A DNA stretch of 54,602 nt from an uncultured Candidatus Bathyarchaeia archaeon (GCA_964347145.1 CAYFXU010000001.1:1-54602), one strand, 5' to 3'. Counted from the stretch's first letter, positions 7,178-29,297 are shown. Translations and numbers: made by a program. The notes: a model not told the origin generated them from the sequence alone.

Positions 7178-7250
7178 TGGAGCGAAAGCGTTAAGAGAGA
7201 AACGTAACGTATTCATCTGCAAAATCTGGGTTACGCTTGAAGGGATAATC

Positions 7251-7484
7251 ATGACGTTCCTTCGATCGATAAAGAAGGGGCAAAAAAGGTTTGCAAAGGC
7301 GTTGTTAATGCTGTTTGCAGCCTTCCTAATCTTCGGAGGACCCACATACCTCATCTACATCCTTGACAAATTGGATCTTCCTAGACTCGTCATACTCCCT
7401 ATCGGTCTAGTCGCCTTCGTAGCAGGTCTTATTCTCTTTACGTATTTATCAAAAGAGGATACAAAGACTGAAACTTCTAGCTAA
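7251..7484 (+). CDS. Small two-TM membrane protein (hypothetical)
   Basis: 77 aa with two hydrophobic helices (ALLMLFAAFLIFGG, VILPIGLVAFVAGLILF) and a purine-rich stretch upstream of the ATG. Confidence 0.45.
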   Translation: MTFLRSIKKGQKRFAKALLMLFAAFLIFGGPTYLIYILDKLDLPRLVILPIGLVAFVAGLILFTYLSKEDTKTETSS

Positions 7485-7696
7485 GGATCCTCCCTTTCCT
7501 TCATGAAATCTCGCGCGCGCACTGAACTCAAACCTTTCCCGCGTCATTTGGTTGGTTAATTGGAAGACCAGCCTTACTTTTTCCCGCGCGCGCTCTTGGC
7601 TTACTGTATAATTTACTGGCGCGGAGACCTACGAGTTCAAAATCGTTTGGGAGTCTGTGCGTACCATCCATAGTATTTTTATGATCGTAGTAATAG

Positions 7697-7766
7697 AAAT
7701 TGATAGCAAAATGTATAAATAGTATTATTTCTTTCATAGAAAACTCTGATAAGCTTCACCCAAGTG
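7697..7766 (+). promoter_or_regulatory. Conserved promoter/leader element, copy 1 (upstream of plus-strand hdr operon)
   Basis: 64/70 nt identical to the reverse complement of 21030..21099. Contains TATAAAT at 7714-7720. Confidence 0.8.
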
Positions 7767-7797
7767 TTGTTCGGGCTTTGAAAGAGGTAAGGTTTAT

Positions 7798-8250
7798 TTG
7801 AATGAAATAAATGAGGATCAGAAAACCGATGATTTCTATCTTTGTTACCAGTGTGGAACTTGTAGTGGGGGGTGCCCGGTCACTAGGCTTATACCTGAAT
7901 ACAATGTAAGAAAGATACTCAAACACAGAAAGGAAAACAGGACAGATGTTAACAACAGATTTCTCTGGTACTGCTTGACTTGCTATATATGTTACGAACG
8001 ATGTCCTCAAGATGTCAAGCCAATTGAGGTCATACACTCAATTACGAATTTTATGTCAAAAAATGGATTTGCTCCTTCATCTTTGAAGGAAGGCAATAAA
8101 AAAATTCTGGCCGTAGGTCGTAGCAGTGACATCACCAAATTTACTGAACAAAAAAGAAGGAGGTTAGGGCTGCCAGATTTGAAAAAAGATGTTTCAAAGG
8201 ACTTCAAGGAAATCGCTAAAATAACAGGATTGATGGAGTTGGTCCAATGA
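7798..8250 (+). CDS. hdrC: HdrC-like 2x[4Fe-4S] ferredoxin subunit
   Basis: CYQCGTCSGGCP and CLTCYICYERCP motifs. TTG start. 4-nt overlap with the following hdrB. Confidence 0.85.
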   Translation: MNEINEDQKTDDFYLCYQCGTCSGGCPVTRLIPEYNVRKILKHRKENRTDVNNRFLWYCLTCYICYERCPQDVKPIEVIHSITNFMSKNGFAPSSLKEGNKKILAVGRSSDITKFTEQKRRRLGLPDLKKDVSKDFKEIAKITGLMELVQ

Positions 8251-9122
8251 ACCTTGCCTTTTTTCTAGGGTGCAATATTCCAACCCAAGTTTACAATTAT
8301 GAGGCTTCTGTCAGGAAAATTTCCGAAGCTTTCAAGATCAAACTCGTAGACGTCCCGGATTTCGGTTGTTGTGGCGAACTTACTGAAGCCATGGATCATT
8401 ATACATCCCTCGTCTTCTCTGCGAGGAATATCGCCTTGGCAGAGAAGGAAGGTCTAGATCTCTTAACATTATGTAACGGCTGTTTCTCTTCGTTGAGTAA
8501 GGCAATTCTCGCGCTAAGGGATTCTCACCGAAGAAGTGAAGTCAACGAAACTCTGAAAAAAATAGGCCTGTCCTACCAGGGAAAATCAAAGGTGTTTCAC
8601 TTTCATCAACTGATGTACGACATTGTTGGCCCTTCAAAGATCAAGGAAAAATTAGTCTTGGACTTTAATGGCGTCTCCGTATCCTGTCACAATGGCTGCC
8701 ACATCCTCAGACCAAGCGATGTTCTCAGGTTCGATGATCCTGAAAATCCGAGAAAGCTTGAAGAACTTGTAGCATTAACTGGAGCCCAAATTGTTAAGCC
8801 CGTGGGTAACGAACAGTGTTGCGGATCGGTTCTGTCACTTTGTGATTTGGATGCTGCCCAATCATTGGCAATAGAATCTATTGAAAGAAAAGGTGAAGTC
8901 GATGCGATAGTAGTGGGGTGCCCATTTTGTTTCAAACAATTCGATATGGGGCAAGTTGTCGCCAGAAAGAAATTCAATAAGGAATTGAACATTCCGGTAC
9001 TCTTCTACGCCGAACTTTTGGGGTTGGCTCTTGGTTTTGAAGCAAAGGATCTTGGGCTTGACGCTGTCCATAAGATACGAACGGAAGAGTTCTTGAAAAA
9101 GTCAGGGGTTTCCAATGGCTAG
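8247..9122 (+). CDS. hdrB: HdrB-like CCG-domain subunit
   Basis: Two CCG motifs (DFGCCGE, EQCCGSV) plus conserved Cys pairs (CNGC, CPFC). 291 aa. Confidence 0.9.
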   Translation: MNLAFFLGCNIPTQVYNYEASVRKISEAFKIKLVDVPDFGCCGELTEAMDHYTSLVFSARNIALAEKEGLDLLTLCNGCFSSLSKAILALRDSHRRSEVNETLKKIGLSYQGKSKVFHFHQLMYDIVGPSKIKEKLVLDFNGVSVSCHNGCHILRPSDVLRFDDPENPRKLEELVALTGAQIVKPVGNEQCCGSVLSLCDLDAAQSLAIESIERKGEVDAIVVGCPFCFKQFDMGQVVARKKFNKELNIPVLFYAELLGLALGFEAKDLGLDAVHKIRTEEFLKKSGVSNG

Positions 9123-10143
9123 CGTGTTGGTAGTCGGCGGCGGCATCGCTGGAATGCACTGTTCGCTAGACTTGGCCAATATGGGCCATCGCGTTTATTT
9201 GATGGAAAAGGAAGGAGAAATAGGAGGCAATCTGAAGAATCTCTATGAAGTCTTTCCCACAAATGAGAAAGCAGAAAAGTTTCTCAGTAACTTCAAAGAA
9301 AAGGCAAAAACACAAAAGAACATATCAGTCCTAACGAACTCAACTCTCACTGCGTTTGAAGAAAAGATCGATGCTTTCAAAGTTACAATTAATAACTCCG
9401 GAAAGAGTGACACCTTCAATGTCGATGCAGTAGTTCTTGCAACGGGCTTCGTCCCCTATGACCCAAGCGAAAAGACAGAATACGGATACAATAGGTACAA
9501 GGATGTTGTGACTTCAATAGACTTAGAAAGAATGATGAAAGAAGGAAAGTTGGTAAGACGGTCGAACTCTGAGATACCAAGATCTGTAACATTTGTTCAA
9601 TGCGTTGGATTTAGAGACGCCAAGGCATATAGATACTGTTCCAATTTCTGTTGCACGTCAACTGTGAAGAATGCACTAATTATCAAAAGAGAATATCCCG
9701 CCGTAGACGTAAGTGTCATGTACATGGATATCAGAACCCCATACATCTATGAGAATCTATACTTGGATGCTAGAAACATCGGCGTGAAGTTTGTCAGGGG
9801 CAGACCCGCTGAGATTTTTGAAAAGTCCAACAAATTGGTTCTCAATTTCGAGGACACTTTAACCGGTGACACGCGCAGTATCGAATCTGAGTTGGTTGTT
9901 CTTTCCATTGGGGGAATTCCCACTCCAGAAACAAAGGAGCTAAGTCAAATGATGAAGGCATCATTGAGTGATACGGGATTTTTCAAGGTTCACAATGAAC
10001 CTTCCGGAACGAATGCAAATCGAATTTTTGTTGCTGGAGCCGCGTGTGGTCCAAAGGATATCGATTATTCTCTGTCACAGGCAGGTGCTGTCGCGGCTCA
10101 AATAAACAAACTTTGGGGGGGAAAACATGTTGCTGGTAAATAA
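9115..10143 (+). CDS. hdrA: Short HdrA-like FAD/[4Fe-4S] flavoprotein (thioredoxin-reductase-fold core only)
   Basis: VLVVGGGIAGMHCSLDLA Rossmann motif; QCVGFRD...YCSNFCC cluster motif; GAACGPKDI. Lacks the HdrA N-domain, both ferredoxin domains and the TFPTNDCxxC motif (has VFPTNEKAEKF instead). Confidence 0.85.
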   Translation: MASVLVVGGGIAGMHCSLDLANMGHRVYLMEKEGEIGGNLKNLYEVFPTNEKAEKFLSNFKEKAKTQKNISVLTNSTLTAFEEKIDAFKVTINNSGKSDTFNVDAVVLATGFVPYDPSEKTEYGYNRYKDVVTSIDLERMMKEGKLVRRSNSEIPRSVTFVQCVGFRDAKAYRYCSNFCCTSTVKNALIIKREYPAVDVSVMYMDIRTPYIYENLYLDARNIGVKFVRGRPAEIFEKSNKLVLNFEDTLTGDTRSIESELVVLSIGGIPTPETKELSQMMKASLSDTGFFKVHNEPSGTNANRIFVAGAACGPKDIDYSLSQAGAVAAQINKLWGGKHVAGK

Positions 10144-11197
10144 ATGTTACCAATGTGGGTTATGTACTGGAATTTGCCCAAAAAGGCGGATTTCCACTTA
10201 TTCACCTCGCTTCAGGATTAACAAGTTTTTGCTGCAGAATGAGAGAAAGGTCTCGTGGGAATGTCTTACCTGCGGACTGTGTTCACAGTATTGCCCACAA
10301 GAAGTTGACTATCTCGACTTCGTTCGAGACCTGAGGAAGCAAGAAGTTGATGAAGAGGCGATTGCTCATGAATCAATCTTTTCTTTGATCTGTGAAATCA
10401 TGGCTAAATACCCCGCTGCTCAAGGGGTGCCTACGGACTTCAAAGGCGAGACAGATCAAAACAGTGACGTTGCATATTTCCCGGGCTGTCTCGACTTTTT
10501 TGACTGTTTCTTGGATGTGGGCGTAGATTTTCATGAGATTGGCGAGTCAAGCGTAAGGCTGCTGAATCGGATCGGCATCAAACCCAGAATTCTTTCCCTA
10601 AAATGTTGTGGACACGACGCACTTTGGCAGGGCTCCAGCGCTACCTTCAACGTCCTGAGGAAGTATAACGAAAACAAAATGAAGAACAGTGGCATCAAAA
10701 CTCTCGTCACTTCTTGTGCAGAATGTTTTAGAACATTTTCGAAAGATTACGAACTTGATATAGAGGTAATGCACATCTCCCAAATACTTGAGAAGAATAG
10801 GGATAAATTGGGTATTGAAACTAATGGCACTATAGTTACGTATCACGATCCGTGTAGACTTGGCAGACACATGGATGTATACGATGCGCCAAGAAACGTG
10901 CTGTCGAATGTGAAAGGCCTCACACTTAAAGAGCTTGATTATGCGAGGGAAGATGCCCAATGCTGTGGCGTATCTGCATGGGTTTCATGCAACCAAGAGG
11001 CCAAGTTTCTAGTGGTGGAAAAACTGGAAAGAGCGATGGATACAAATTCAAAAATCCTGGTCACGGCATGCCCTAAGTGTTGTGCACATTTGAATTGTGT
11101 AAAGAATGAGAAGCCGCCGATGAAAGATTTTAGAGTGGATGTTGAAGATCTAACGGTTTTCTTGTCAAAATTGATTGACAAAGGTGAGCACAGATGA
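10127..11197 (+). CDS. HdrD/GlpC-like fusion of an HdrC-type ferredoxin and an HdrB-type CCG domain
   Basis: CYQCGLCTGICP and CLTCGLCSQYCP are followed by CCG motifs (KCCGHD, QCCGVS). Confidence 0.85.
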   Translation: MLLVNKCYQCGLCTGICPKRRISTYSPRFRINKFLLQNERKVSWECLTCGLCSQYCPQEVDYLDFVRDLRKQEVDEEAIAHESIFSLICEIMAKYPAAQGVPTDFKGETDQNSDVAYFPGCLDFFDCFLDVGVDFHEIGESSVRLLNRIGIKPRILSLKCCGHDALWQGSSATFNVLRKYNENKMKNSGIKTLVTSCAECFRTFSKDYELDIEVMHISQILEKNRDKLGIETNGTIVTYHDPCRLGRHMDVYDAPRNVLSNVKGLTLKELDYAREDAQCCGVSAWVSCNQEAKFLVVEKLERAMDTNSKILVTACPKCCAHLNCVKNEKPPMKDFRVDVEDLTVFLSKLIDKGEHR

Positions 11198-11631
11198 CTG
11201 TGAGCGAATTTGAACCGAGAATTGTGGTCTTCGCGTGTAATTGGTGTTCTTACGCGGGAGCGGATTTAGCGGGAGTTAGTAGAATTCAATATCCTCCGAC
11301 GGTAAGGATAATACGGGTGATGTGCTCAAGTAGAGTTGATCCAGCCTTCATTTTGAAGGCTTTTCTCAGAGGGGCAGACGGAGTTCTAGTTGCGGGCTGC
11401 CATCTTGGTGACTGCCATTATATTGAGGGCAACTACAATACCGAAAAGAGGATAAAGGAAACGATGAAAGCCCTAGCATACGTGGGGTTTGAAATCAAAA
11501 GACTGAGATTGGAATGGATATCTGCTTCTGAAGGACCGAAGTTTGCGAGCGTAATCAGAGAATTCACAGTCGAGGTGAAAGAGTTGGGACCTAACCCTAT
11601 GCGGATAAAGGGAGATAATATGAATGGGTAG
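11194..11631 (+). CDS. mvhD: MvhD-type (methyl-viologen-reducing hydrogenase delta) [2Fe-2S] subunit
   Basis: FACNWCSYAGADLAG ... RVMCSSRVD ... GADGVLVAGCHLGDCHY. Confidence 0.9.
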   Translation: MTVSEFEPRIVVFACNWCSYAGADLAGVSRIQYPPTVRIIRVMCSSRVDPAFILKAFLRGADGVLVAGCHLGDCHYIEGNYNTEKRIKETMKALAYVGFEIKRLRLEWISASEGPKFASVIREFTVEVKELGPNPMRIKGDNMNG

Positions 11632-12646
11632 CGTATTGGTGGTTGGTTCTGGGGTTGCCGGTATCCAAGCTTCACTTGACCTCGCAGATTTTGGTTACCG
11701 TGTTTTTCTGGTCGAGAGAGAGCACGAACTTGGAGGAAACCTTAGGAACCTGAGTGACCTCTTCTCGACGGGTGAGAAATCATCTGATTTGCTTTCGAGT
11801 CTCCTAGGCAAGATTGAGAAAAAGAAGAACATAATGGTCATGAAAAACTCTGAAGTTTTAGATATTACGGGAGAATTTCCAGAATTCGAAGTTAAAGTGA
11901 AGAGTTCAAATGAAGAAAATAATTTCATTGTGAATGCTATAATCTTAGCCACTGGATTCAAGCCCTATGATCCCTCACCCCTAAAGCAGTATGGGTATGG
12001 CGAATACCGCGATGTGATAACCTCTTTGGAGCTAGAAGAAATGCTCAAGAAGGGAAGACTTGCGAGACCTTCAGATTCGATGAAACCAAATCGCATATCC
12101 ATAATCCAGTGTGTCGGCTCGAGGGATAGCAACACAAATGCATACTGCTCCTCTTTTTGTTGCATGTATGCCATCAAGTTCGCACAGCAAATCAAGAAAA
12201 TGCATCCAGACGCTGTGATAACCATATTGTATATGGATATAAGAACTCCCTATGAAAGCGAGTTTGACTTTAGTAATGCTAGATTGTTGGGCATTCGGTT
12301 TCTAAGAGGAAGACCCGCCAGAGTTAGGAAAGGAATAGATTCTCTTGTGGTTCAGGTCGAAGATACATTGGAGAATGATTTGGTCTTCCTCGAATCTGAC
12401 ATTGTGGTGCTATCTATAGGGGGAGTTCCTGATCCAGCGACTGCTTTTTTCAAGGACAAGTTAAATCTTGAGTTATCAGATTCAGGCTTTTTCCATGTAG
12501 TGGAAAGACCGGTTAGCACGAACGTAAAAGCTGTTTTTGTTGCCGGTGCCGCAAGCGGGCCAAAAGACATCGCGTACTCGATGGCGCAGGGTAGCTGTGC
12601 AGCCGCTAAGGTTGACATAATAATGAAATCCCCAGAGATCACGTAA
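11624..12646 (+). CDS. hdrA: Second short HdrA-like FAD/[4Fe-4S] flavoprotein
   Basis: VLVVGSGVAGIQASLDLA; QCVGSRD...YCSSFCC; GAASGPKDI. DLFSTGEKSSDL replaces the TFPTNDC motif. Paralog of 9115..10143. Confidence 0.85.
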   Translation: MGSVLVVGSGVAGIQASLDLADFGYRVFLVEREHELGGNLRNLSDLFSTGEKSSDLLSSLLGKIEKKKNIMVMKNSEVLDITGEFPEFEVKVKSSNEENNFIVNAIILATGFKPYDPSPLKQYGYGEYRDVITSLELEEMLKKGRLARPSDSMKPNRISIIQCVGSRDSNTNAYCSSFCCMYAIKFAQQIKKMHPDAVITILYMDIRTPYESEFDFSNARLLGIRFLRGRPARVRKGIDSLVVQVEDTLENDLVFLESDIVVLSIGGVPDPATAFFKDKLNLELSDSGFFHVVERPVSTNVKAVFVAGAASGPKDIAYSMAQGSCAAAKVDIIMKSPEIT

Positions 12647-12665
12647 ACCTGATTTGGGATACTGC

Positions 12666-15600
12666 CTATACAAGCGTTTTTGATTCTACCACGATTGGTG
12701 TACTGAGTAAGTCCTTTGGCTCTTGAGGTTTTGTTATGGCCGCTTCAAGGCTTGCCTCAATTTGCTGTTTTGAAAAGTGTTGATGAGTTATTGCTCCGAC
12801 GGGGCATGCTACGGCACATGATCCACAACCCTTGCACGTAATGGGGTTTATATAGGCCTTCCTTGTTTGAAACTTAACCTTCTCTAGGATCATTTCCTCT
12901 GGCTGAAGTTCTATTGCTTTAAAAGGGCATACTTCGACACAAGTACCACAGCCCTTACATTTTTCTTCGTTAACCACGCTTATGGCGCCTTCAGATTCTA
13001 TGTGATCCTTCGATAATATCGTGCAGGCATGTGAAGCTGCTGCGCTCGCTTGAGCTATGCTCTCATATATCATCTTTGGCGAATGGGCGGTTCCGCAAAC
13101 GAATACTCCGTCGGTTGCAAAGTCAACAGGCCTAAGTTTCACGTGAGCCTCCAAAAAGAAGCCGTTAGCATCGAGAGGAACCTTGAACATCTTGCTTAGT
13201 TTTTCATAATCATCTCCCGGAACTATTGCGCTACTTAGAACTATGAGGTCTGGCCTCAATCTGAGATTCAGATTGAACATCGGATCGTACATTTCGACTG
13301 TCAGATTTTTTGGATTGACTGATGGTTTGTTTTCATTTGTGTACCTCAGGAAGACCACTCCGAGGTCTCTCGCTTCTCTATACAATGCTTCCCACAGTCC
13401 ATATGCGCGTATGTCCCGGTAGAGTATGTAGACTTCCGTATCTGGGTTTAACTTCTTAATTCTGATAGCGTTCTTTATTGCTTCTGTACAACAAACTCTG
13501 GAACAGTATGCTCTGTTTTCGTCCCTAGAACCCACACATTGGATCATGACGACAGTCTTTACACCCTTCTTTTCATCCCACATCCATTTTCCAGTTATCA
13601 TGGGCTCCAATATTTTTTGAGTAATAATTTTGTTACTCTTTCCAAAGTGGAAGAGGCCTTTGGGTTCTAGCATCTCCGCCCCAACTGCAATTACGGCGGC
13701 TCCAAAATTTGCTTCTGAAACTTTTCCTTCTGTGTTGATTTTGGCCCTAAAGTTTCCGACAAAACCGTTGACTTCGATGACTTCTGAATTCTTGAATACT
13801 GTGATTTTCGGGTTGTTTTCAACCTTATCTATTATCTCTTCCAGGATTTCGATTGTCTTACTCCCATCTTGTATCTCTTCTATGCTTCGCATAAATCCGC
13901 CAAGTCGATCTCGCTTTTCTACAAGATAGACTTCAAAGCCCTGATCTGCAATGTCCAAGCTCGCTGTCATCCCTGAAATGCCGCCACCGATTACGAGAGC
14001 GTTCTTCTTTACAGGAATTAACTCAGTTTGAAGAGGCTGTAGAAATCTGGCCCTTGCGACAGCCATTCTGAGAAGGTCCTTTGCTTTTTCTGTCGCACCC
14101 TTCTTGTCTCTCATGTGAACCCATGAACATTGCTCCCTGATGTTGCAGAATTCAAAAAGGTATTGGTTCAAACTGGCTTCTCTGCAGGTGTTTCTGAATA
14201 TAGATTCATGAGTTCTCGGCGTGCAGGACGCTACTATGACTCTGTTCAGATCTTTCTCTTTAATGACTTCCTTTATTTTTTGTTGAGTGTCCTGAGAACA
14301 CGTATACAGATTTCTCTCGGCATGAACCACATACGGTAATCCTTTCACGTATTCGACCACTTGGGGAACATCTACAATTCCTCCGATGTTTATGCCGCAG
14401 TGACAGATAAAGACGCCAATTCTAGGTTCTTCTCGAATAGATTTCTCTTTTGGATACTCCTTCTTTGTAATGAGCTGATTCCTCACAGACGATAGAAGCA
14501 CACCTGCCTTTGCTGCTGCTGCGCTCGCCTGTGCTACTGAGTCAGGAATATCCTTGGGTCCTTGAGATGCCCCACAAACATATATTCCTTGAAGGTTAGT
14601 TTCTACGGGACTTGTTAGTTTGGTGTTAACGTATCCGAAATCGTTTAGTTTCAGGTCTATAATTTCCTTAAGCGAGAGCAAAGTGCTGGGTGGTGTTAAT
14701 CCTACAGAGAGGACGACCAGATCTAGGTCCATGCTCTTAAGTTCGTTGGTGACAGGGTCCTCGTAAAAAACTGTTAGGCCCCCTTTGTCTTTGTTGGGAG
14801 ACACTGCTGGAACCTCGCATCTTATGTATTTGATTCCATACTCTGTTGTTGCTCTCTCAGTGAATTCTTCGAATCCTTTTCCAAAAGCGCGCAAGTCTAT
14901 GTAGAAGATTGTTATATCTAGTTCTGGGTCGTGTTCTTTTGCGACTATGGCCTCTTTTGTGGCGTACATGCAGCAGACGGCGGAACACAGTTCCCTACCT
15001 ATGCTGGGGTTCCTCGATCCAACACACTGAATAAACCCGATTTTTCTAGGTCTTCTTCCGTCTGAAGGACGAAGGACAACACCTCCGTAGGGGCCACTGG
15101 CACTTAGAATTCTTTCAAACTCGGCACTTGTGATCACGTTTTGGTAGCGGTATCCATATTCTTTCATGGTCAATGGGTCAAAAAGTTCTGCACCAGTAGC
15201 AAGAATGACTGCTCCAACATTTAGTTCGGTTGGACTGGTCTTCTGGTTGTAGTCTATCGCTTTTCTCTTGCAATTCTTCTCACAAAGTCCGCATCCGATA
15301 CATGCGTTTCTATCGATGGAGTAAACCAGAGGAACTGCTTGGGGGTACATCACCGAGATAGCGCTCTTTTTGTTGAGGTTTCTGTTGAAAGCATCGAGAG
15401 CCCTAACTGGGCACGCTCTTGCGCAGTCTCCACAGCCATTACATTTTTCCGGGTCGACATATCTCGGTTTTTTCAGCAGTTTTACCTTAAAATCTCCTGC
15501 AATGCCACTGAAATCAACGATTTCAGCGTTACCTATTATTTCTATGTTCGGGTGTCTGTATGTGTTAACAAGTTTTGGGGACAAGATGCACATGGCACAG

Positions 15601-15755
15601 TCGTTTGTTGGAAATGTCTTGTCCAGTTGAGGCATTGTTCCTCCTATACTCGGGTTTTTGTCGATAAGGTAAACTTTGAAACCTGAGTCTGCGAGGTCCA
15701 AGGATGCTTGAATCCCGGCTATTCCCCCACCAACGACAAGAACAGAACCTTTCAT
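12666..15755 (-). CDS. hdrA: Double-module HdrA (TrxR-like module with inserted ferredoxin + HdrA N-domain + second TrxR-like module + C-terminal ferredoxin)
   Basis: 1029 aa. Two Rossmann motifs (VVGGGIAGIQASLD; VIGGGISGMTASLD), TFPTNDCAMCIL, two CVGSR...CC motifs, N-domain motif VFICHCGINIGG...CSWVH located mid-protein, and four CxxCxxCxxxCP-type motifs. Confidence 0.9.
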   Translation of the reverse strand: MKGSVLVVGGGIAGIQASLDLADSGFKVYLIDKNPSIGGTMPQLDKTFPTNDCAMCILSPKLVNTYRHPNIEIIGNAEIVDFSGIAGDFKVKLLKKPRYVDPEKCNGCGDCARACPVRALDAFNRNLNKKSAISVMYPQAVPLVYSIDRNACIGCGLCEKNCKRKAIDYNQKTSPTELNVGAVILATGAELFDPLTMKEYGYRYQNVITSAEFERILSASGPYGGVVLRPSDGRRPRKIGFIQCVGSRNPSIGRELCSAVCCMYATKEAIVAKEHDPELDITIFYIDLRAFGKGFEEFTERATTEYGIKYIRCEVPAVSPNKDKGGLTVFYEDPVTNELKSMDLDLVVLSVGLTPPSTLLSLKEIIDLKLNDFGYVNTKLTSPVETNLQGIYVCGASQGPKDIPDSVAQASAAAAKAGVLLSSVRNQLITKKEYPKEKSIREEPRIGVFICHCGINIGGIVDVPQVVEYVKGLPYVVHAERNLYTCSQDTQQKIKEVIKEKDLNRVIVASCTPRTHESIFRNTCREASLNQYLFEFCNIREQCSWVHMRDKKGATEKAKDLLRMAVARARFLQPLQTELIPVKKNALVIGGGISGMTASLDIADQGFEVYLVEKRDRLGGFMRSIEEIQDGSKTIEILEEIIDKVENNPKITVFKNSEVIEVNGFVGNFRAKINTEGKVSEANFGAAVIAVGAEMLEPKGLFHFGKSNKIITQKILEPMITGKWMWDEKKGVKTVVMIQCVGSRDENRAYCSRVCCTEAIKNAIRIKKLNPDTEVYILYRDIRAYGLWEALYREARDLGVVFLRYTNENKPSVNPKNLTVEMYDPMFNLNLRLRPDLIVLSSAIVPGDDYEKLSKMFKVPLDANGFFLEAHVKLRPVDFATDGVFVCGTAHSPKMIYESIAQASAAASHACTILSKDHIESEGAISVVNEEKCKGCGTCVEVCPFKAIELQPEEMILEKVKFQTRKAYINPITCKGCGSCAVACPVGAITHQHFSKQQIEASLEAAITKPQEPKDLLSTPIVVESKTLV
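13084..13133. repeat. 50-nt tract identical to 16878..16927 (paralog gene-conversion candidate)
   Basis: Base-by-base comparison shows tgggcggttccgcaaacgaatactccgtcggttgcaaagtcaacaggcct in both hdrA giants. The flanking bases differ. Confidence 0.9.
14916..14993. repeat. 78-nt tract identical to 18695..18772 (paralog gene-conversion candidate)
   Basis: Base-by-base comparison: the tract runs from atctagttctgggtcg to ggaacacagttc and is identical in both hdrA giants, including all synonymous sites. The immediately flanking bases differ. Confidence 0.9.
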
Positions 15756-15764
15756 GTCAATAAT

Positions 15765-16550
15765 TCACCCTATTAGTTGAAAAATGGGATAATCATCCTT
15801 GAAGCCAACTATATTGACGGATCCTTCATTTTTCAGTTGCATCAAGCAGTCGAAGACTTCTTTTCCTTCAATTCCGAGTTTTTCTGAGAGATCGGCAACT
15901 GAAAGCGGCGTATCCTTGATCAAGCTCAGAACTAGAGATTTCAGATATTTTGTTTCGACAACCTCCCCGACTATCCTTGTCAAGTGATCTGGATCGAGTT
16001 TCTCGCCATACACATTTCCTTCATCTCGGAGTACTTTCTCTTTACCTATCATCCACCTCACCGTGAAGTCTAGAAACTCGTTTTCAGCAGCAACTATCTT
16101 ATCCATGGTGGGAACACCGTCTATGATTTCCTTGGAAATAGGCCCGAGTTTCTTCAGTTCCTCAGTGAACTCGGTGATAGTGTCCGCAAAAAGCTTTCCT
16201 TCTGATGCAGAAATCCATTTGTATTCAAATCGTTGTACAGGAATCTTGCTTCTTTCAATAACCCTCGCGACATGTTTCATCTTCTGCTGCGCCTCCATGT
16301 TACCCGTTATATAGTGACAATCCCCGGGATGACACCCAGCCACCAAGACACCATCGGCTCCTTCGCGAAAGGCCTCAAAAATTAGGAATGGGTCAACCCT
16401 TCCGCTGCACATAACCTTGATTATCCTTATGCTCGTTGGATACTGATACCTCGAGACCCCGGCAAAGTCCGCTCCTGCGTAAGAACACCAGTTACATAAG
16501 AATGCAATTATCAATGGTTCAAAATCTTTTTCATCACTCTCTTCTTTCAT
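15765..16550 (-). CDS. mvhD: MvhD-type subunit with about 120-aa C-terminal extension ending in a winged-helix-like segment
   Basis: FLCNWCSYAGADFAG ... KVMCSGRVD ... GADGVLVAGCHPGDCHY, followed by the extension ...PLSVADLSEKLGIEGKEVFDCLMQLKNEGSV. Confidence 0.9.
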   Translation of the reverse strand: MKEESDEKDFEPLIIAFLCNWCSYAGADFAGVSRYQYPTSIRIIKVMCSGRVDPFLIFEAFREGADGVLVAGCHPGDCHYITGNMEAQQKMKHVARVIERSKIPVQRFEYKWISASEGKLFADTITEFTEELKKLGPISKEIIDGVPTMDKIVAAENEFLDFTVRWMIGKEKVLRDEGNVYGEKLDPDHLTRIVGEVVETKYLKSLVLSLIKDTPLSVADLSEKLGIEGKEVFDCLMQLKNEGSVNIVGFKDDYPIFQLIG

Positions 16551-19500
16551 GAGACCACCTTTGCCGCCCTGATCTGTGATATGATTTGTTGGTCAGTGAA
16601 ATGTGTTACACTGATGGCTTTTTCGGGGCATGACGCGGCACAAACACCGCATCCTTTGCATGCTGCCAAAATGACTTCTGCTTTTCCATCTTCACCAATT
16701 TCGACAGCATTAAATGGGCACAAGAATACGCAAAGTTCACAGCCTACGCATTTTTCTTTATCAGTTACGCGACTTATGATCACTTCACTTTCGATATAAT
16801 CCTTTGAGAGAATTGTTGTAGCTCTTGACGCCGCTGCACTCGCCTGCGCTATGCTCTCGTATATCATCTTTGGATAGTGGGCGGTTCCGCAAACGAATAC
16901 TCCGTCGGTTGCAAAGTCAACAGGCCTGAGCTTCACGTGAGCCTCCAAGAAGAAGCCGTTGGGATCCAAAGGTACCTTAAATAGCCTGCTGATTTTTTCG
17001 TAATCCTTGCGTGGAGTAATTGCACTGCTCAGCACCACGTAATCGGGGTGGAGCACCAACTTTTCCTGCAAAAGCAGCTCATCAACTATGACGGATAGGT
17101 TTTCAGGGTCTACAACTGGTCTATGTTCATCTGTATACCTAACAAAAACTACGCCCATGCTTCTTGCTGTGTTGTAGATGGTCTCCCAGATTCCATAGGC
17201 CCTAACATCTTTGTACAGTATGTACACGTCCGTTTCTGGGCTCATCTTCTTAATGTTTATCGCATTCTTTATCGCTTCACTGCAACACACTCTGGAACAG
17301 TAGGTTCTGCCTTCACTTTCCCTGGAACCAACGCACTGGATCATGACAACGGTCTTTGCGTTGAAACCTTTCTCAAGCATCTGCTCCAAGTCTTTTTGAG
17401 TGATTATACTCCCGTTTTCTCCATAATTGTAGTATCCCGTAGGTTGAAGTACATCGGCTCCGACAGCAATAATGGCGGTTCCGAATTCGATTTCTTTAGA
17501 GCCTTTAGGAGTGGTTATTGAGGCCTTGAAGTTCCCAACATGACCGGCTACTGCCTCCACTTCTGATTCAAAAAACATTTTTATGCGCGGATGGTTCTTC
17601 ACTTTTTGAATACTTTCTCTAAGGATCTCAAATGTCTTGGTTCCATCTTGGATTTGCCATATGTTCTTGACGAACCCTCCCAGTGCCGCACTCTTTTCAA
17701 CCAGGTAAACCTCGAACCCTTGATTCGCTATGTCTAGGCTTGCAGTCATTCCAGATATGCCTCCGCCCAACACCAACGCCTTCTGAGTAACAGGGATCAT
17801 TCGTCTTTGGAGGGGCCTCAACAGTCTTGCCTTGGCAACCGCCATCTCTATTAGATTTTGAGCCTTCTCTGTAGCCCTCTCCTTTTGATTCATGTGTACC
17901 CAAGAGCACTGTTCGCGGATGTTACAGAACTCGAAAAGATATGGGTTTAAACCGGCTTCCTTCACTGTGTTTTGGAAGAGAGGTTCATGAGTTCTGGGAG
18001 TGCACGATGCAACTACGATTCTGTTCAATTCCTTTTGTTCTATGACTTCCTTTATTCTTTCCAGTGTATCTTGTGAGCACGTGTAGAGGTTTTCTTCACA
18101 ATGAATAACGTTCTGCAGTGTGCTAACGTATCTAACCACTTCGGGCACATTTACAACTCCTCCAATGTTAATGCCGCAGTTACAAACAAAGACGCCTATC
18201 TTGGGCTCTTCCTTTATCTGGCGTTCTTTTGGAAATTCCTTTTCGGTGGTTAACCTGTTTCTAGCTGATGGAAACAGAGCCTTTGCCTTTGCAGCAGCTC
18301 CACATGCTTGAGCTACACAATCCGGTATATCTTTCGGACCTTGAGCTGTCCCACAAACATATACGCCTTCGATGTTGGTCTCCATTGGCTTGTCAAGCCT
18401 TGTTTTTACATAACCGTATTGATTCAATTCTAGGTCCAACATCTCGGCAAGCTTTTTGAGCGATTTTGGAGGCCTTAGCCCGACTGACAGGACCACGAGA
18501 TCGAGGTCTACGGTCTTGAATTCGTTGTCTTTGGGATCTTCATAGTAGATCTTGAGCAGATCACTGTTTATGTGTCCTTTCACCTCAACATCTTTACATC
18601 TGACGTACTTGATATTGTATTCATCCTCAGCTCTTTTTGTAAACTCTTCAAACCCTTTCCCATAAGCCCTCAGGTCTATGAAAAATATGTACACATCTAG
18701 TTCTGGGTCGTGTTCTTTTGCGACTATGGCCTCTTTTGTGGCGTACATGCAGCAGACGGCGGAACACAGTTCTCTGCCTATGCTGCGGTCTCTCGACCCA
18801 ACACATTGGATAAACCCGATCTTCTTTGGTTTTGATCCATCTGAAGGCCTGATTATTGATCCCTTTGTAGGTCCACTTGCGCTCAGAAACCTCTCAAACT
18901 CGGTTGATGTGACTACATTCTCATGCTTATAATTCAGCATGGTTTCGGGTGTTGGATCATATGCTTCTGCGCCAGTGGAAACGATTATGCTTCCAACCCT
19001 TAATCTAACTCTTTCGTCTTTTTGAGTGAAGTTCACAGCTTTGGCTTCGCACACTTTCTCACATATTTGACAAACATCTTTGGTAAAATAAAGACAATTT
19101 TCCTTGTCGATCAAGGCGACGAGTGGAACTGCTTGGGGGAAAGGAACTCTTATGCACTTTGTCAGGCCGATGTTCTCGTTCATTGCGTCTGAAATCTTTA
19201 CAGGACATTTAGAAGAACATGTCCCACATCCAGTACACCTTTCCTTGTCCACAAACCTCGTTTTCTTAAGCAATTCGATTTCAAAATCCCCTGCCTTCCC
19301 AGTAACAGAAAGCAATTCGCAGTATGTGAGTAACTCTATGTTTGGATGACGCGAAACCTCAGCCAACTTGGGAGCCAGAATGCAGATCGCACAATCGTTC
19401 GTTGGAAATGTTTTATCGAGTTGGAGCATCCTTCCCCCGATGGTGGGTCTATCCTCAACAAGGTACACCTTAAAACCTGACTCTGCGAGTTCGAGAGCTG

Positions 19501-19573
19501 CATATATTCCTGATATCCCCCCGCCGATTACAGCTACAGCACCCACAGGCTGCACGAGTGTCACCAATCTCAA
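16547..19573 (-). CDS. hdrA: Double-module HdrA, paralog of 12666..15755
   Basis: 1008 aa with the same architecture: VIGGGISGIYAALE, TFPTNDCAICIL, VFVCNCGINIGG...CSWVH, VLGGGISGMTASLD and a C-terminal CVGCELCVFLCP / CKGCGVCAASCP. TTG start; 4-nt overlap with mvhD. Confidence 0.9.
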   Translation of the reverse strand: MRLVTLVQPVGAVAVIGGGISGIYAALELAESGFKVYLVEDRPTIGGRMLQLDKTFPTNDCAICILAPKLAEVSRHPNIELLTYCELLSVTGKAGDFEIELLKKTRFVDKERCTGCGTCSSKCPVKISDAMNENIGLTKCIRVPFPQAVPLVALIDKENCLYFTKDVCQICEKVCEAKAVNFTQKDERVRLRVGSIIVSTGAEAYDPTPETMLNYKHENVVTSTEFERFLSASGPTKGSIIRPSDGSKPKKIGFIQCVGSRDRSIGRELCSAVCCMYATKEAIVAKEHDPELDVYIFFIDLRAYGKGFEEFTKRAEDEYNIKYVRCKDVEVKGHINSDLLKIYYEDPKDNEFKTVDLDLVVLSVGLRPPKSLKKLAEMLDLELNQYGYVKTRLDKPMETNIEGVYVCGTAQGPKDIPDCVAQACGAAAKAKALFPSARNRLTTEKEFPKERQIKEEPKIGVFVCNCGINIGGVVNVPEVVRYVSTLQNVIHCEENLYTCSQDTLERIKEVIEQKELNRIVVASCTPRTHEPLFQNTVKEAGLNPYLFEFCNIREQCSWVHMNQKERATEKAQNLIEMAVAKARLLRPLQRRMIPVTQKALVLGGGISGMTASLDIANQGFEVYLVEKSAALGGFVKNIWQIQDGTKTFEILRESIQKVKNHPRIKMFFESEVEAVAGHVGNFKASITTPKGSKEIEFGTAIIAVGADVLQPTGYYNYGENGSIITQKDLEQMLEKGFNAKTVVMIQCVGSRESEGRTYCSRVCCSEAIKNAINIKKMSPETDVYILYKDVRAYGIWETIYNTARSMGVVFVRYTDEHRPVVDPENLSVIVDELLLQEKLVLHPDYVVLSSAITPRKDYEKISRLFKVPLDPNGFFLEAHVKLRPVDFATDGVFVCGTAHYPKMIYESIAQASAAASRATTILSKDYIESEVIISRVTDKEKCVGCELCVFLCPFNAVEIGEDGKAEVILAACKGCGVCAASCPEKAISVTHFTDQQIISQIRAAKVVS
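16878..16927. repeat. Second copy of the 50-nt identical tract (see 13084..13133)
   Basis: Identical string by direct comparison. Confidence 0.9.
18695..18772. repeat. Second copy of the 78-nt identical tract (see 14916..14993)
   Basis: Identical string by direct comparison. Encodes ELCSAVCCMYATKEAIVAKEHDPELD in both proteins. Confidence 0.9.
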
Positions 19574-19574
19574 T

Positions 19575-20441
19575 CTACTTGACGAAGTCGATTACGGGTT
19601 TCGCGGAAATCATGTTTTTGTGAAGACCAAGTTCCTTTGGAGGAATCCCGAATGAGAGCCCAATAAGTTGCGTGAAATAAAGAATGGGAATCTCACGTTT
19701 GCTATCTATTTTCGCCATGACTTTGTGTTGTAAGGTCTCAAGGGCCATATGGCAAAGCGGGCACGTAACAGTGATGCACTGTGCCTCACGTTCCTTCGCC
19801 TCGGCGATGATCTCTTTTGTCAATTCGAAAGGCGTTTTCTGATCTGTCATTAGCAAACCTCCGCCGCAACATTTTGTTTTGCCAAAGAACTCTAGGGGTT
19901 CTCCACCTAAGTTTAAAACGAGTCTGTCAAGTAGCTCCGGGTCGTCTGGATCATCAAAATTGAGGATTTTGGATGGTCTAACTATCAGGCAACCGTAGTA
20001 GGAAACAGTTTTTAACTCTTTAAGCGGTTTTTGTACGCGTTCTTTTATCTTCTGCAGGCCTATGTCACTCAAAAACAAATCTAGAAGATGCTTTATTTCT
20101 AACTCACGAAAATTGTAGTTTAAGAGTTGATTTATCCTTCTCCTCAATTCTCCATTTTGAGAGAGCCTCCACTGGACTTTGACAAGATTATTTAAACATG
20201 CATTGCATGTCACTACCAGCTTATCTGATTCTTCCGACGCAATCTTCAAATTTCTGGCCGGCAAAGCCAACGAGAGCAGGGGATTCAGTGAACTAACTTC
20301 TAGTGCACCGCAACAATTCCAGTCTTCAATTTCTACGAGTTCTATGTCGAGCCTCTCGCAAACGGCGTTTGCAGATAGTTGGTATTCTTTTGCAGAAGAT
20401 TCAAGTGAACATCCTGGGTAATAAGAAATTCTCACCTTCAC
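19575..20441 (-). CDS. hdrB: HdrB CCG-domain subunit
   Basis: DWNCCGALE and KTKCCGGGL CCG motifs. 288 aa. 4-nt overlap with hdrC. Confidence 0.9.
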   Translation of the reverse strand: MKVRISYYPGCSLESSAKEYQLSANAVCERLDIELVEIEDWNCCGALEVSSLNPLLSLALPARNLKIASEESDKLVVTCNACLNNLVKVQWRLSQNGELRRRINQLLNYNFRELEIKHLLDLFLSDIGLQKIKERVQKPLKELKTVSYYGCLIVRPSKILNFDDPDDPELLDRLVLNLGGEPLEFFGKTKCCGGGLLMTDQKTPFELTKEIIAEAKEREAQCITVTCPLCHMALETLQHKVMAKIDSKREIPILYFTQLIGLSFGIPPKELGLHKNMISAKPVIDFVK

Positions 20442-21022
20442 ATCACCTGAGTCTCTTTGAATAGCTTGTCTATCTCCTTGAGGTCTTTGACTTTTTTCGG
20501 AAACAGGCTTAGTTTTCTCTTGCGAACCATCTTTAATCCCAGTGGAAAATACGACAGCATGAACTTCAGGTCTTTCCTTTTCAGTATATATTTCGTCATC
20601 AGCCCAGTCTCGAATACTCTTCCGTAGTGTCTTATGCTGTCTGCGAAGGTTGAATCAAACAAGAACGTTGGGCCTTTGATCTCGATGTTTCCTTTTTCCA
20701 GTTCTCTTATTGCAAGAATCTTTAGTGCTTCAACAACCTCAGCAAACTTCACATTTTGAGGACACCGTTCATAGCAGGTGTGACAGTGTACGCACTTCCA
20801 TATGGTTTCACTGGAAAGTAGTTCTTTCTTCATCCCGTATAGAATCATTCTGATTATCTTTCTTGGGTTGTAATCATTGTCGATTCTCCTTACGGGGCAT
20901 GAAACTGCACAAATGCCACAGTGAAAACATTGCTTCACGTTCTCACCACCTGGTTGGCTAGAAACTTCATATTTGAAATTCGGATCGAGATCACCAAAAT
21001 CAACTGTCTGTTTCTTTTCCAT
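20438..21022 (-). CDS. hdrC: HdrC 2x[4Fe-4S] subunit
   Basis: CFHCGICAVSCP and CVHCHTCYERCP. ATG start 8 nt downstream of the conserved promoter/leader element. Confidence 0.9.
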   Translation of the reverse strand: MEKKQTVDFGDLDPNFKYEVSSQPGGENVKQCFHCGICAVSCPVRRIDNDYNPRKIIRMILYGMKKELLSSETIWKCVHCHTCYERCPQNVKFAEVVEALKILAIRELEKGNIEIKGPTFLFDSTFADSIRHYGRVFETGLMTKYILKRKDLKFMLSYFPLGLKMVRKRKLSLFPKKVKDLKEIDKLFKETQVM

Positions 21023-21029
21023 TCCAAGC

Positions 21030-21099
21030 CACTTTGATGAAGCTTATTAGAGGTTTCTATGAAATAAATAATACTATTTATACATTTTGCTGTCAATTT
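21030..21099 (-). promoter_or_regulatory. Conserved promoter/leader element, copy 2 (upstream of minus-strand hdr operon)
   Basis: Its reverse complement is 64/70 nt identical to 7697..7766 and contains TATAAAT. Confidence 0.8.
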
Positions 21100-21238
21100 T
21101 TATGATGAAAACCATAAATATTCGTGCCCAACAATGGTCACAATAAGCGCCGCGCGTGCTTCCGTTTGATTTCATAGAGAAAGAGAGCATATATAATTGA
21201 AAACGCGGATTCCCTATTGGGCGCACGAAGAACAGTAG

Positions 21239-21898
21239 GTGAGAGATGATTTGGCTTCTTTGGGGAAGGTTGTGTGCTTGGTCTCCGGTGGAATAGATTC
21301 CCCTGTTGCTGCTTGGCTGCTCATCAAGAAAGGTTGTGTTCCCATATTCATTTATTATGACAATTATCCCTTCACTGGTGAAACCACTAAGCAACGGGCA
21401 TTGGATACAATAAAGAAGCTGAAGGAATATTCACGTGAGCAGAGGCTGAAGGTTTATGTAATTCCTCATGGTCCTGACTTGGTAGACATCTTGAGAAATA
21501 CCCCTAGGAAATTGACATGTGTTCTTTGTCGAAGGATGATGTACCGACTAGCTGAGAAGGTCGCAACAGTAGAGGGAGCCAATGCTGTAGTAACAGGAGA
21601 AATAATTGGCGAACACGCTAGTCAAACATTGAGAAACATACGTGTGGAAAACACCGCCGTGACAGACACCTGTGTTTTGAGACCCCTGGTGGCCATGGAC
21701 AAACTGGACGTAGAGCGTTTGGCCAGGAAGATTGGAACCTTTGAACTGTCGACGAGACCGGGTCTTTGCTGCAGTGCCACTCCTAAGTCACCTAGAACTC
21801 GTGCGTCTCTGGAAGAGGTCTTTGATGCTGAAGAGAAACTTGACGTGAAGAAAATGATTGAACGGGGCATGAAGAATGCCGAAATCCTTGAAGCTTGA
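21239..21898 (+). CDS. thiI: Stand-alone ThiI-like PP-loop ATP-pyrophosphatase / sulfurtransferase domain
   Basis: PP-loop motif CLVSGGIDSPVAAW; CVLC pair; C-terminal LCCSATP. Only 217 bp lie upstream, so no THUMP/NFLD domain can be encoded. Confidence 0.75.
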   Translation: MRDDLASLGKVVCLVSGGIDSPVAAWLLIKKGCVPIFIYYDNYPFTGETTKQRALDTIKKLKEYSREQRLKVYVIPHGPDLVDILRNTPRKLTCVLCRRMMYRLAEKVATVEGANAVVTGEIIGEHASQTLRNIRVENTAVTDTCVLRPLVAMDKLDVERLARKIGTFELSTRPGLCCSATPKSPRTRASLEEVFDAEEKLDVKKMIERGMKNAEILEA

Positions 21899-21926
21899 TT
21901 TTCCTATGTGTCCATGTACATGGCTT

Positions 21927-22271
21927 TCATTTGGCCTCAGCCTCTGAGGCTATTCTTAGGACATCTTCTGCTACTGCTTCGGCTTCGCTTTTGTTGAGAA
22001 CTCTTTTGATCAGAATTCTTCCGTCCTTGGAGAATGTTATTTCAGCTTCTTTGCAACTTTTTATGATTATGATGTGGGGGGTGTAAACGAGCAGTTCATA
22101 TTCCCTTGCTGCCTCAAATAGTTGCTTCAGCCGGTACATGTCGAAATAGTTTTTTCGTCGAAGTTTCACTTCGTACGCAGCTTTGTCTGAACAAAGCTTG
22201 ACGAAAAACGGTGTTACATCCTTATTTGCCTTCCACATTAAGATCCCGAAGTGCACGATGTTTGTCTTCAA
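21927..22271 (-). CDS. Hypothetical protein
   Basis: 114-aa ORF, last gene of the apparent menA-FeS-hyp minus-strand unit. No family recognised by eye. Confidence 0.5.
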   Translation of the reverse strand: MKTNIVHFGILMWKANKDVTPFFVKLCSDKAAYEVKLRRKNYFDMYRLKQLFEAAREYELLVYTPHIIIIKSCKEAEITFSKDGRILIKRVLNKSEAEAVAEDVLRIASEAEAK

Positions 22272-23264: not shown

Positions 23265-23327
23265 TCATGTACGAATTCTTCTCGAAGACTGGCGTGCGCG
23301 CGCGCTCTTTTTTGCACCTGCAATTTC

Positions 23328-24632: not shown

Positions 24633-26525
24633 TTGAAGAAGTCCCGACTTTTGAATTTTCTCCTAATCGCATTGGCATTGTGTATGGGAATTGCCGCAGT
24701 GTTATACATGAAAACTCCGTCAGTAATAGCATGGCCAGATTTTGCCCAAGCCTGTAGCAGCTGTCATGATCTCGACGTTGGTGTCACAACCACTGCGAGT
24801 GTGTCAGAGTTGAGTTTGATGCCAGGTGAAACATCCCAAGCCTTTACAATAACGGTGAATGGAGCCGGATATCATCAAGGCCTCACTGGTTCTGCCCTTC
24901 GACTGCCTTTTGGCTGGACTGGTTCGGAAGATTATGCGTTTGGCAATTCAACAGAAACTGACGGAGAATGGTATTGGACGGAGACTCGCGAAGATCCAGA
25001 TCATATTGAAATGTTCACCGCCACAATAACGGTGCCTACCGATGCCACCGAGGGTGACTATACCATCGATGTGTGGGGAGCCGGAGACAACGTTGATGGC
25101 AATAAAGCGTCGGATTCGACGACGATCACAGTGACAGTCATCGTTGTTTCACCCCCTGTTGCTTCCTTCACTTTTTCACCTGAGTCTCCGATTGTGGATG
25201 AAGAAGTGACTTTCAACGCTTCTACTAGCCATGATGCTGACGGTACCATTGTAAGTTATGATTGGGATTTTGGTGATGGAACTACTGGTTCTGGAGTAAC
25301 TGTTGCTCATACATACACGGCTGACGGCAGCTACAGTGTTACATTAACCGTTACCGACAACGATGACCTATCAGACAGTGCTACTCAAGAAGTCACCGTG
25401 TCTACTCTCCAGCTTCAGCCTCCCGTTGCTTCCTTTACATTTGAACCTCAAACTCCAGTTGTGAATGAGACGGTGACATTCAACGCTACAGACAGCCATG
25501 ATCCAGATGGAACCATAATCAGCTACGATTGGGACTTCGGCGATGGCACAATCCTCAGCGAAATCAACCCAGTCGCAGCGCATGATTACGCAGTGGAAGG
25601 ATCATATCTCGTGAAACTCACCGTCGTGGATAATGATGCGCTGAACGACACAGACACAGCTTCTATAACTGTTTCATCGGCAATAGAACACGACATAAAG
25701 ATCACAAACGTCACAGCATTTCCGACAGAGGTAACGATTGGCGATTCATTGTCCATTAACGTCGATCTTGAAAATGAAGGCGATATGTCCGAGACCTTCA
25801 ACGTAACCTCATACTACGACACCACAGTGATCGAAACCAAAACCGTTACAGACTTGGCCTCACACAGCGAAGTAAGATTAAACTTCACATGGAATACTCT
25901 AGGAGTCTCTGAGGGAAACTACACAATAAAGGCCGTGGCAAGCACTGTTTCCGGGGAGACAGATACCGATGACAACTCATATATCGACGGCACAGTCAGC
26001 GTTACTTTCGCCCTAATTGGCAAGGCATCTGTGGATCTTGACCCGGATACGTTAAACCTTAAGAGCCATGGCAGATGGGTAAGTTGTTACATAGAGCTTC
26101 CTGAAGGCTATGATGTGGATGATGTTGACCGAGCAACGATACTGTTGAATGGAACCATTCCAGTTGATCCGTTCTGGGTTGATAAGCCCCTTGAATCTGT
26201 CGTTGGAGACCACGATAGTGACACAATTCTTGACTTGATGGTTAAGTTCAATAGAATGTCGGTAAGTGACTATCTTCTTGATCATAACGTAGCGTTTGGA
26301 AACGTGACTCTGACATTAACAATGCAACTCTACGATGGTACACCATTCGAAGGCAGCGACACAATCAAAGTGTTGCCGAAAGCAAGCCGAGTCTCTCTCA
26401 AAGGAGCGAAATCCTATGGACTTGTCCCTAACCCACTGATGTTCCTCTTTGCTGTAACCGTTCCAGTCGTTTTTGATAGAGCGAAGACAGTCAGGAAGAA
26501 TGTTTTCGCGGCGCGTCCATCATAG
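24633..26525 (+). CDS. Surface protein: signal/anchor, monohaem CxxCH + beta-sandwich module, 2x PKD, CARDB-like, Ig-like domain, C-terminal hydrophobic anchor
   Basis: N-terminal TM LLNFLLIALALCMGIAAVLYM; haem motif CSSCH. Two PKD repeats (VSYDWDFGDGT...YSVTLTVTDND; ISYDWDFGDGT...YLVKLTVVDND). CARDB-like INVDLENEGDMSETFNV. C-terminal PLMFLFAVTVPVVF. TTG start. Confidence 0.85.
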   Translation: MKKSRLLNFLLIALALCMGIAAVLYMKTPSVIAWPDFAQACSSCHDLDVGVTTTASVSELSLMPGETSQAFTITVNGAGYHQGLTGSALRLPFGWTGSEDYAFGNSTETDGEWYWTETREDPDHIEMFTATITVPTDATEGDYTIDVWGAGDNVDGNKASDSTTITVTVIVVSPPVASFTFSPESPIVDEEVTFNASTSHDADGTIVSYDWDFGDGTTGSGVTVAHTYTADGSYSVTLTVTDNDDLSDSATQEVTVSTLQLQPPVASFTFEPQTPVVNETVTFNATDSHDPDGTIISYDWDFGDGTILSEINPVAAHDYAVEGSYLVKLTVVDNDALNDTDTASITVSSAIEHDIKITNVTAFPTEVTIGDSLSINVDLENEGDMSETFNVTSYYDTTVIETKTVTDLASHSEVRLNFTWNTLGVSEGNYTIKAVASTVSGETDTDDNSYIDGTVSVTFALIGKASVDLDPDTLNLKSHGRWVSCYIELPEGYDVDDVDRATILLNGTIPVDPFWVDKPLESVVGDHDSDTILDLMVKFNRMSVSDYLLDHNVAFGNVTLTLTMQLYDGTPFEGSDTIKVLPKASRVSLKGAKSYGLVPNPLMFLFAVTVPVVFDRAKTVRKNVFAARPS

Positions 26526-26548
26526 AATTTCGTGTGCATGCGCCAAAG

Positions 26549-28781: not shown

Positions 28782-28813
28782 TGTCCCGTCCTCCTCGTCT
28801 ATGTGATTCGACT

Positions 28814-29296: not shown

Positions 29297-29297
29297 C

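Follow-up and report, generated by a model that had tools for sequence, protein, structure and literature searches.

Promoter reuse, in which putative mobile promoters come to stand before different genes, is the described kind of event that most closely resembles the case reported here. Under the criteria of Matus-Garcia, Nijveen and van Passel (2012), as summarized in PMC3575422, reuse is recognized by an identity of 80% or more across 50 nt or more of upstream DNA, by dissimilar downstream coding sequences and by the absence of insertion sequences (ISs) and known RNAs, and its proposed consequence is rapid regulatory rewiring. Here we describe an inverted pair of promoter copies, at 7675-7766 and 21030-21121, that stand before two convergent Hdr-like operons in a 54,602-nt stretch of DNA (the window) from an uncultured Candidatus Bathyarchaeia archaeon (GCA_964347145.1, CAYFXU010000001.1:1-54602). 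In all likelihood, the left copy is derived and has replaced the native promoter of the operon that it now precedes. Promoter reuse being a known kind of event, this is a new and well-polarized archaeal case of it, not a new type of element.

Several features set the locus apart from the published cases. The fixed frame from -150 to -50 of the published criteria covers the right copy only in part. The recipient of the promoter here is an ancient paralogue of the donor, lies 13 kb away and is inverted, and the donor, the recipient and the replaced native promoter can all be identified from relatives, in a host that uses an archaeal TFB recognition element (BRE) and TATA box. The Cit+ trait of the Escherichia coli long-term experiment, a promoter capture by duplication as cited in that article (PMC3575422), is alike in that duplication set an existing promoter before another transcription unit and altered its regulation; as portrayed there, however, it arose by tandem duplication, which created a new promoter-gene junction under strong laboratory selection, whereas here a short inverted patch displaced a working promoter.

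Two further comparisons bear on the history of the locus. As in other examples of operon splitting, an 11-gene operon appears to have been divided by inversion of its distal half, which gained its own promoter; what differs is that in the window lineage the split half later came back under a copy of the original promoter. Gene conversion drives the concerted evolution of inverted paralogues in bacteria, for example tufA/tufB and the rRNA operons. The inverted copies in the window similarly share derived substitutions that are missing in orthologues, but the tract is only ~92 nt long and non-coding, and conversion would be read from three shared derived bases. What makes the locus instructive is that it offers a fully polarized natural promoter replacement, in which donor, recipient, lost promoter and ancestral operon are all readable from relatives.

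The inverted promoter pair and the operons it precedes

A repeat search of the window returned a sole long inverted pair, whose 92-nt arms at 7675-7766 (plus strand) and 21030-21121 (minus strand) are 85% complementary. Counted directly, 7697-7766 and the reverse complement of 21030-21099 are identical at 64 of 70 positions, as the original prediction of inverted 70-nt promoter/leader copies had it, and the long arms are identical at 78 of 92, the sum of 14/22 over the distal 22 nt and 64/70 over the remainder; both counts lie within the identity range that defines promoter reuse. The edges of the shared block are sharp. On the 5' side, beyond 7675, no significant similarity was found between the flanks of the arms, and past 7766 the left and right leaders match at just 11 of 32 positions. 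The right arm (21030-21121) is identical in two independent assemblies of the same strain. Runs ERR2564001 and ERR2564004 and assemblies GCA_012974925.1 and GCA_012974985.1 likewise contain this strain.

The element is not a generic repeat, a concern that the original prediction had raised. When up to three mismatches are allowed, the window contains exactly two occurrences of each of two sub-blocks (25 and 27 nt), and neither is present in 100 dinucleotide-preserving shuffles. In 456 kb of related loci, the sequence type of the right arm (R-type) was found beyond promoters of the right-hand hdrC (hdrC-R) at just two sites, both of them promoter swaps; this distribution gives a generic repeat no support. 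A scan of one genome per species with the pattern ATAAATAGTATTN5TTTCATAGAAA yielded three chance bacterial matches, none fitting the rest of the element, and a search of viral contigs with a 21-nt core returned 13 AT-rich contigs that match the query stretch alone. Nor does the 92-mer resemble a miniature inverted-repeat transposable element or an IS-derived repeat, for its ends (ATTTTTATG at one and CCCAAGTG at the other) are not complementary and it has two copies in 54.6 kb.

The gene content of the two operons, assigned with Pfam and NCBIfam, is as originally read. The left operon (7798..12646, plus strand) comprises hdrC, hdrB, a short HdrA-like gene, an hdrD-like gene, mvhD and a second short HdrA-like gene, and the right operon (12666..21022, minus strand) comprises hdrC, hdrB, a double HdrA gene, an mvhD with a winged-helix tail and another double HdrA gene. 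Every Hdr match scores under the NCBIfam equivalog cut-off, so that 'Hdr-like' is the safe name. The two hdrC genes encode proteins of 150 aa (left) and 194 aa (right), and the right mvhD encodes 261 aa. The first genes are strongly diverged, as had been noted from the sequence: left and right proteins share 32% identity for HdrC and 30% for HdrB, and the repeat search detected no nucleotide repeat joining hdrC-L (the left-hand hdrC) to hdrC-R, so that here, too, the pair resembles promoter reuse, with alike upstream DNA before dissimilar coding sequences. The convergent operons end 19 nt apart (12646-12666) in a gap without an obvious oligo-T terminator, and their transcripts probably overlap or collide. 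A 77-aa open reading frame (ORF) with two hydrophobic segments at 7251-7484 (plus strand) lies inside the apparent 620-nt intergenic region 5' of hdrC-L, which leaves a real spacer of ~313 nt.

Both arms have the layout of an archaeal core promoter. An A-rich, BRE-like stretch GCAAAATG followed by the TATA box TATAAATA, read from the sequence, occupies 7706..7721 (plus strand) in the left copy and 21075-21090 (minus strand; TATA box at 21075-21082) in the right, and is invariant or nearly so in all R-type copies. At the usual archaeal spacing, with the centre of the TATA box ~26 nt upstream of +1, the patch would initiate transcription at 7744..7748 (left) and ~21048-21052 (right). The end of the TATA octamer lies 77 nt from the start codon on the left and 53 nt on the right, plausible distances given that TATA-like boxes stand 35-60 nt 5' of the start codons of other genes in the window. 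The shared block spans ~-70 to ~+20 relative to the predicted start. The 70-92-nt element can accordingly be described, from its motifs, as the putative core promoter of hdrC-R, made up of the BRE-like stretch, the TATA box, the region to the start and ~20 nt of 5' leader; the original reading of it as a promoter with the first part of its leader agrees with this BRE/TATA layout and with its conservation at hdrC-R orthologues.

The further proposal of a conserved leader RNA, under which the block would specify a structured 5' end of the transcript (a riboswitch, for example, or the target of a small RNA), fared poorly. About 20 nt of the shared block do extend past the predicted start, and the sequence of each copy allows a small AAGC...GCTT hairpin. 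Yet these ~20 nt are all that a transcript would contain of the block, the leaders fold no better than shuffled sequences (z = -0.46 and -0.41, with +1.5 and +0.1 for the 70-mers), an Rfam search is empty both at E<=1 and at the gathering score, and orthologues conserve the leader less than any other part of the element. We consider a leader RNA highly unlikely. The empty Rfam search, together with the lack of transposase domains, also places the pair alongside reused promoters, which are free of ISs and known RNAs.

Probable source and recipient of the copied promoter

The right copy (21030..21121, minus strand) is the source. Matches to an R-type profile lie directly 5' of hdrC-R in related lineages (L006, L007-L010, L013/14/21 and L065/66), and the R-type core is present in relatives whose HdrC is 82-92% identical to the right HdrC of the window. 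In relatives with a right HdrC no more than 70% identical, the promoters are unrelated to R-type. The right HdrC homologues form a graded series, of which the named members are mostly Bathyarchaeota, with one metagenome-assembled genome labelled Korarchaeota. Between the window and orthologues, the 41-nt core differs at 4-7 positions (10-17%) and the four-fold degenerate sites of hdrC-R differ at 31-50%, so that four-fold sites change two to three times as fast as the core; intergenic DNA flanking the hdrC-R promoter cannot be aligned at all among orthologues. The core thus stands out as conserved above the neutral level and is under purifying selection. Within the element, the promoter core is the most conserved portion and the leader the least, being unrelated in L013 and interrupted by insertions or deletions in L007 and L065. 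The occurrence of the R-type core at orthologous hdrC-R genes and its constraint together identify the right arm as the resident promoter of the right operon.

The left copy (7675..7766, plus strand) has a different standing. Orthologues of the left gene set were gathered from protein look-ups and one metagenome scan, and in at least eight related lineages a different conserved sequence, AAAnnCTTAATATTnnGATAATTATGATTnnTTA, here named L-type, lies 5' of hdrC-L (L015/24/25/26, L016, L017/18, L019, L022/23, L042 and L064). An L-type profile has no match anywhere in the window. The window can be aligned with its L-type relatives only from about 7770-7800 onward, just past the end of the patch at 7766, which places the junction inside the 5' untranslated region (7766/7770). 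The left operon therefore keeps its own ribosome-binding site and start codon: the retained native leader of hdrC-L (7767..7797, plus strand), which aligns with the leaders of L-type relatives from ~7770, carries a Shine-Dalgarno-like GAGGT at 7784-7788. In the reading that we favour, an inverted copy of the hdrC-R patch would have replaced the native L-type promoter of the convergent, paralogous hdrC-L operon in the window lineage. Duplication at a rearrangement breakpoint and ectopic gene conversion are both candidate mechanisms for the copying.

These data also bear on how the similarity of the two arms is to be understood. The original prediction had taken the better conservation of non-coding over coding sequence as a sign of selection rather than of recent duplication. 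Instead, the duplication involved nothing but the promoter and came long after the divergence of the genes, and relatives keep a different hdrC-L promoter; the identity of the two arms is explained by this promoter-only event and has since been maintained through purifying selection on the core. A caution follows for comparable loci, in that non-coding DNA that exceeds its genes in conservation may mark a young, promoter-only copy and not ancient constraint. One could alternatively suppose that no copying took place and that the two promoters came to resemble one another by convergence on the binding site of a regulator that they share. Such a regulator is plausible, as both operons encode Hdr-like complexes, and the region from the TATA box to the start is unusually conserved. 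However, 64 identical positions of 70 with sharp edges far exceed the demands of a 15-25-nt operator, and sister lineages with the same genes carry an unrelated promoter at hdrC-L. Convergence is on these grounds exceedingly improbable.

Ancestral operon, inversion and age of the copy

The arrangement of the locus in deeper relatives gives the replacement its polarity. In L013/14/21, L030, L031, L032, L034, L035/36, L038 and L041, a tblastn map places the right set directly before the left set on one strand, with stop and start codons at the junction that overlap or lie ~12 nt apart with GAGGT between them. This tandem arrangement is a single co-directional operon of 11 genes in all deeper relatives, and in the L013 lineage the R-type promoter still stands ahead of all eleven genes. 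In the closer relatives and in the window, the left set is inverted, which yields the convergent arrangement. A neighbour-joining tree of ~1,600 concatenated residues of the left set places the tandem lineages at its base and joins the window to L015/16/18/19 as their sister, with 92% bootstrap support and with L022/L042 outside the group. L-type promoters are thus found on both sides of the window's branch, and most parsimoniously the window's ancestor had an L-type promoter as well. The likely history comprises three steps: a single operon would first have been transcribed from the right-hand promoter; the left set would then have been inverted and furnished with its own L-type promoter; and finally, in the window lineage, an inverted copy of the right-hand promoter would have displaced the L-type promoter.

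A ThiI gene and a 114-aa ORF adjoin the left promoter in L022 (1440-2477), L025 (1158-2157) and L042 (1137-2060), and the same module adjoins the right promoter in the window (21239-22271). No model with a single inversion accounts for this placement.

The same comparisons address the idea that a mobile or invertible cassette of 13 kb terminates in the two arms, which would function as recombinase sites and serve as promoters only incidentally. The long inverted arms precisely bracket both gene sets, as such a cassette would require, and the flanks differ strongly among relatives. Against this, no sizeable ORF in the window has a transposase, integrase or invertase domain, relatives hold the same 13-kb content with the right arm alone, and the right set stands in its ancestral orientation to the Ccm-UbiA flank, the Ccm-UbiA-hdrC-R synteny being kept in L006, L007 and L013. 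The arms themselves, moreover, do not end in terminal inverted repeats, and how far they reach on the 5' side varies by lineage. A mobile cassette is consequently very unlikely.

Several observations nonetheless weigh against the proposed replacement, or at least against its simplest form. The monophyly of the convergent clade has a bootstrap value of only 71%. No alignment was obtained for the 5' flank of the left copy, which leaves the replaced segment without a defined limit on that side. Further copies may exist elsewhere in the source genome, which was not among the genomes of the species-level scan. The promoter function of the element is deduced from sequence and conservation. The earlier suggestion of selection for co-regulation stands in so far as the operons share a promoter whose core is constrained (10-17% versus 31-50%); selection specifically for co-regulation is no more than a possibility. 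Finally, an R-type patch is also found 5' of hdrC-L in L063, a 2-kb contig of the JABAOH010119147.1 lineage, and the presence of the same swap in a lineage other than the window's sister makes a simple single vertical event insufficient.

The L063 contig is informative about the number and age of the copying events. Its left-set DNA is ~92% identical throughout to that of L019, an L-type lineage, and ~83% identical to that of the window. The 3' junction of the patch is shared by the window and L063 within a few nucleotides (AAGTG followed by T(T/A)(G/A)TTCGGG), and the 5' extents differ, reaching ~-70 in the window and ~-45 in L063 with unrelated flanks. Compared with the window, with L-type relatives and with right-hand flanks, the 5' flank of L063 shows no significant similarity; a MAFFT match of this flank around a CGCGCGCG tract was discarded for this reason. 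The L063 patch itself resembles an L006-like right copy. Both an independent copying and a single origin followed by lateral recombination and gene conversion fit the L063 swap.

The two copies in the window are each other's closest matches over 92 nt, although marginally so (85%, versus 82% between the right copies of the window and L065), a margin that indicates that the copy is not very recent. Differences between them are concentrated outside the core, with 2 of 41 positions in the core and 8 of 22 in the distal part, a contrast in keeping with purifying selection that acts on both cores. They also share three derived bases (the C in TTTCATAG, the A in TAAG and the A in TTCA) that are absent from L006, L007, L013, L063 and L065, and a fourth position is changed in both. 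The left copy retains the ancestral TATTTTTATGAT, as does the right copy of L065, and the right copy in the window has lost it.

Perhaps, then, the duplication is old: a single swap could have spread from lineage to lineage through homologous recombination or persisted as a polymorphism, with the left copy in each genome repeatedly homogenized to the right by ectopic gene conversion of the inverted arms. The 3' junction common to the window and L063, the three derived bases confined to the two window copies, the likeness of the L063 patch to an L006-like right copy and the mosaic nature of the locus, in which L019 has a left set near those of L016/L064 and a divergent right set, would all be accommodated by such concerted evolution. 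On the other hand, the differing 5' extents (~-70 versus ~-45) and unrelated flanks fit two independent copyings equally well, and the retention of TATTTTTATGAT on the left with its loss on the right means that any conversion is neither ongoing nor complete. We regard this version of events as possible, though clearly less probable than the replacement itself.

The mosaic pattern was noted as such for L019, L027 and L042 in comparison with L016 and L064. The left set of L019 is 88-90% identical to those of L016/L064. In the right set, identity to the window for MvhD and the first HdrA is only 66-67% in L019, compared with 85-90% in L016/L064. These values suggest recombination between lineages inside the locus.

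A third instance of promoter copying is found in L065, which has two direct R-type copies, at 7220-7340 and 9928-10000, 2.7 kb apart. Joined to the upstream copy is what is left, in decayed form, of the initial ~60 nt of hdrC-R, with ATA in place of the ATG; this extra copy precedes a block of genes for a polyprenyl synthase, an ArsR-type helix-turn-helix (HTH) protein and a 131-aa product. The R-type promoter region is therefore a recurrent site of duplication and breakpoints. It is tempting, if speculative, to view the hdrC-R promoter as a recurrently copied cassette (in the window, L063 and L065) by which selection repeatedly re-couples the split Hdr halves and recruits other genes; were this so, one redox-responsive promoter would be distributed through ectopic copying and conversion or through lateral spread of a regulatory allele.

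Co-regulation and surroundings of the supercluster

With both operons behind the same promoter, co-regulation is the expected outcome. Parallel expression of the two operons would follow from the TBP/TFB site that they have in common and from any regulator that binds between the TATA box and +1, and it would re-create the co-expression of the ancestral single operon. The locus would accordingly illustrate one route by which two paralogous electron-bifurcation modules, once separated by the splitting of an operon, can regain their co-expression, and it predicts parallel expression of both operons in the window lineage and not in L-type relatives. Two proteins encoded in the window are candidate regulators, an ArsR/V4R protein (35947-36672) and an Lrp/AsnC-type protein (52508-53410).

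Another conceivable regulator is the 261-aa MvhD of the right operon (15765-16550, minus strand), which has a C-terminal helical and winged-helix extension in an AlphaFold2 model with a predicted local distance difference test score (pLDDT) of 90. Residues 1-137 match the MvhD structure 5odc_D with a TM score of 0.90. The tail has solely weak structural matches, to ArsR-like, NolR and Z-alpha winged helices, and many homologues of this MvhD have HTH Pfam matches. The winged helix of the MvhD-like BamF is described as a structural adaptor for protein-protein contacts (2026 preprint), and for this reason it is of low probability that the modelled tail would bind the shared promoter; the tail is also present in relatives without an R-type promoter.

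A third Hdr-like cluster is located at 35947-43843 (minus strand) and encodes an 801-aa HdrA-MvhD fusion, HdrC, HdrB and an FrhB-like protein, followed by a polyprenyl synthase and the ArsR/V4R regulator. The same block lies directly 5' of hdrC-R in L065, and a similar cluster is found downstream of the left set in L013/L021. The Hdr region is flanked, at 24633-34714, by genes for cytochrome c maturation (CcmB/C/E/F and an ABC ATPase), for a homologue of multihaem cytochromes and for surface proteins of PKD- and dockerin-like type, which suggests a connection with membrane or extracellular electron transfer.

The window is also dotted with alternating (CG)3.5-5 tracts, at 3342-3350, 7512-7521, 7585-7595, 23296-23306, 35952-35961 and 38447-38453. 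CGCGCGC sites number 8 in the window, compared with ~1 expected, and the majority are situated within intergenic DNA or on its borders. Two of the CG tracts lie 110-190 nt 5' of the left promoter copy, and L007 and L063 each have one near their R-type patch.

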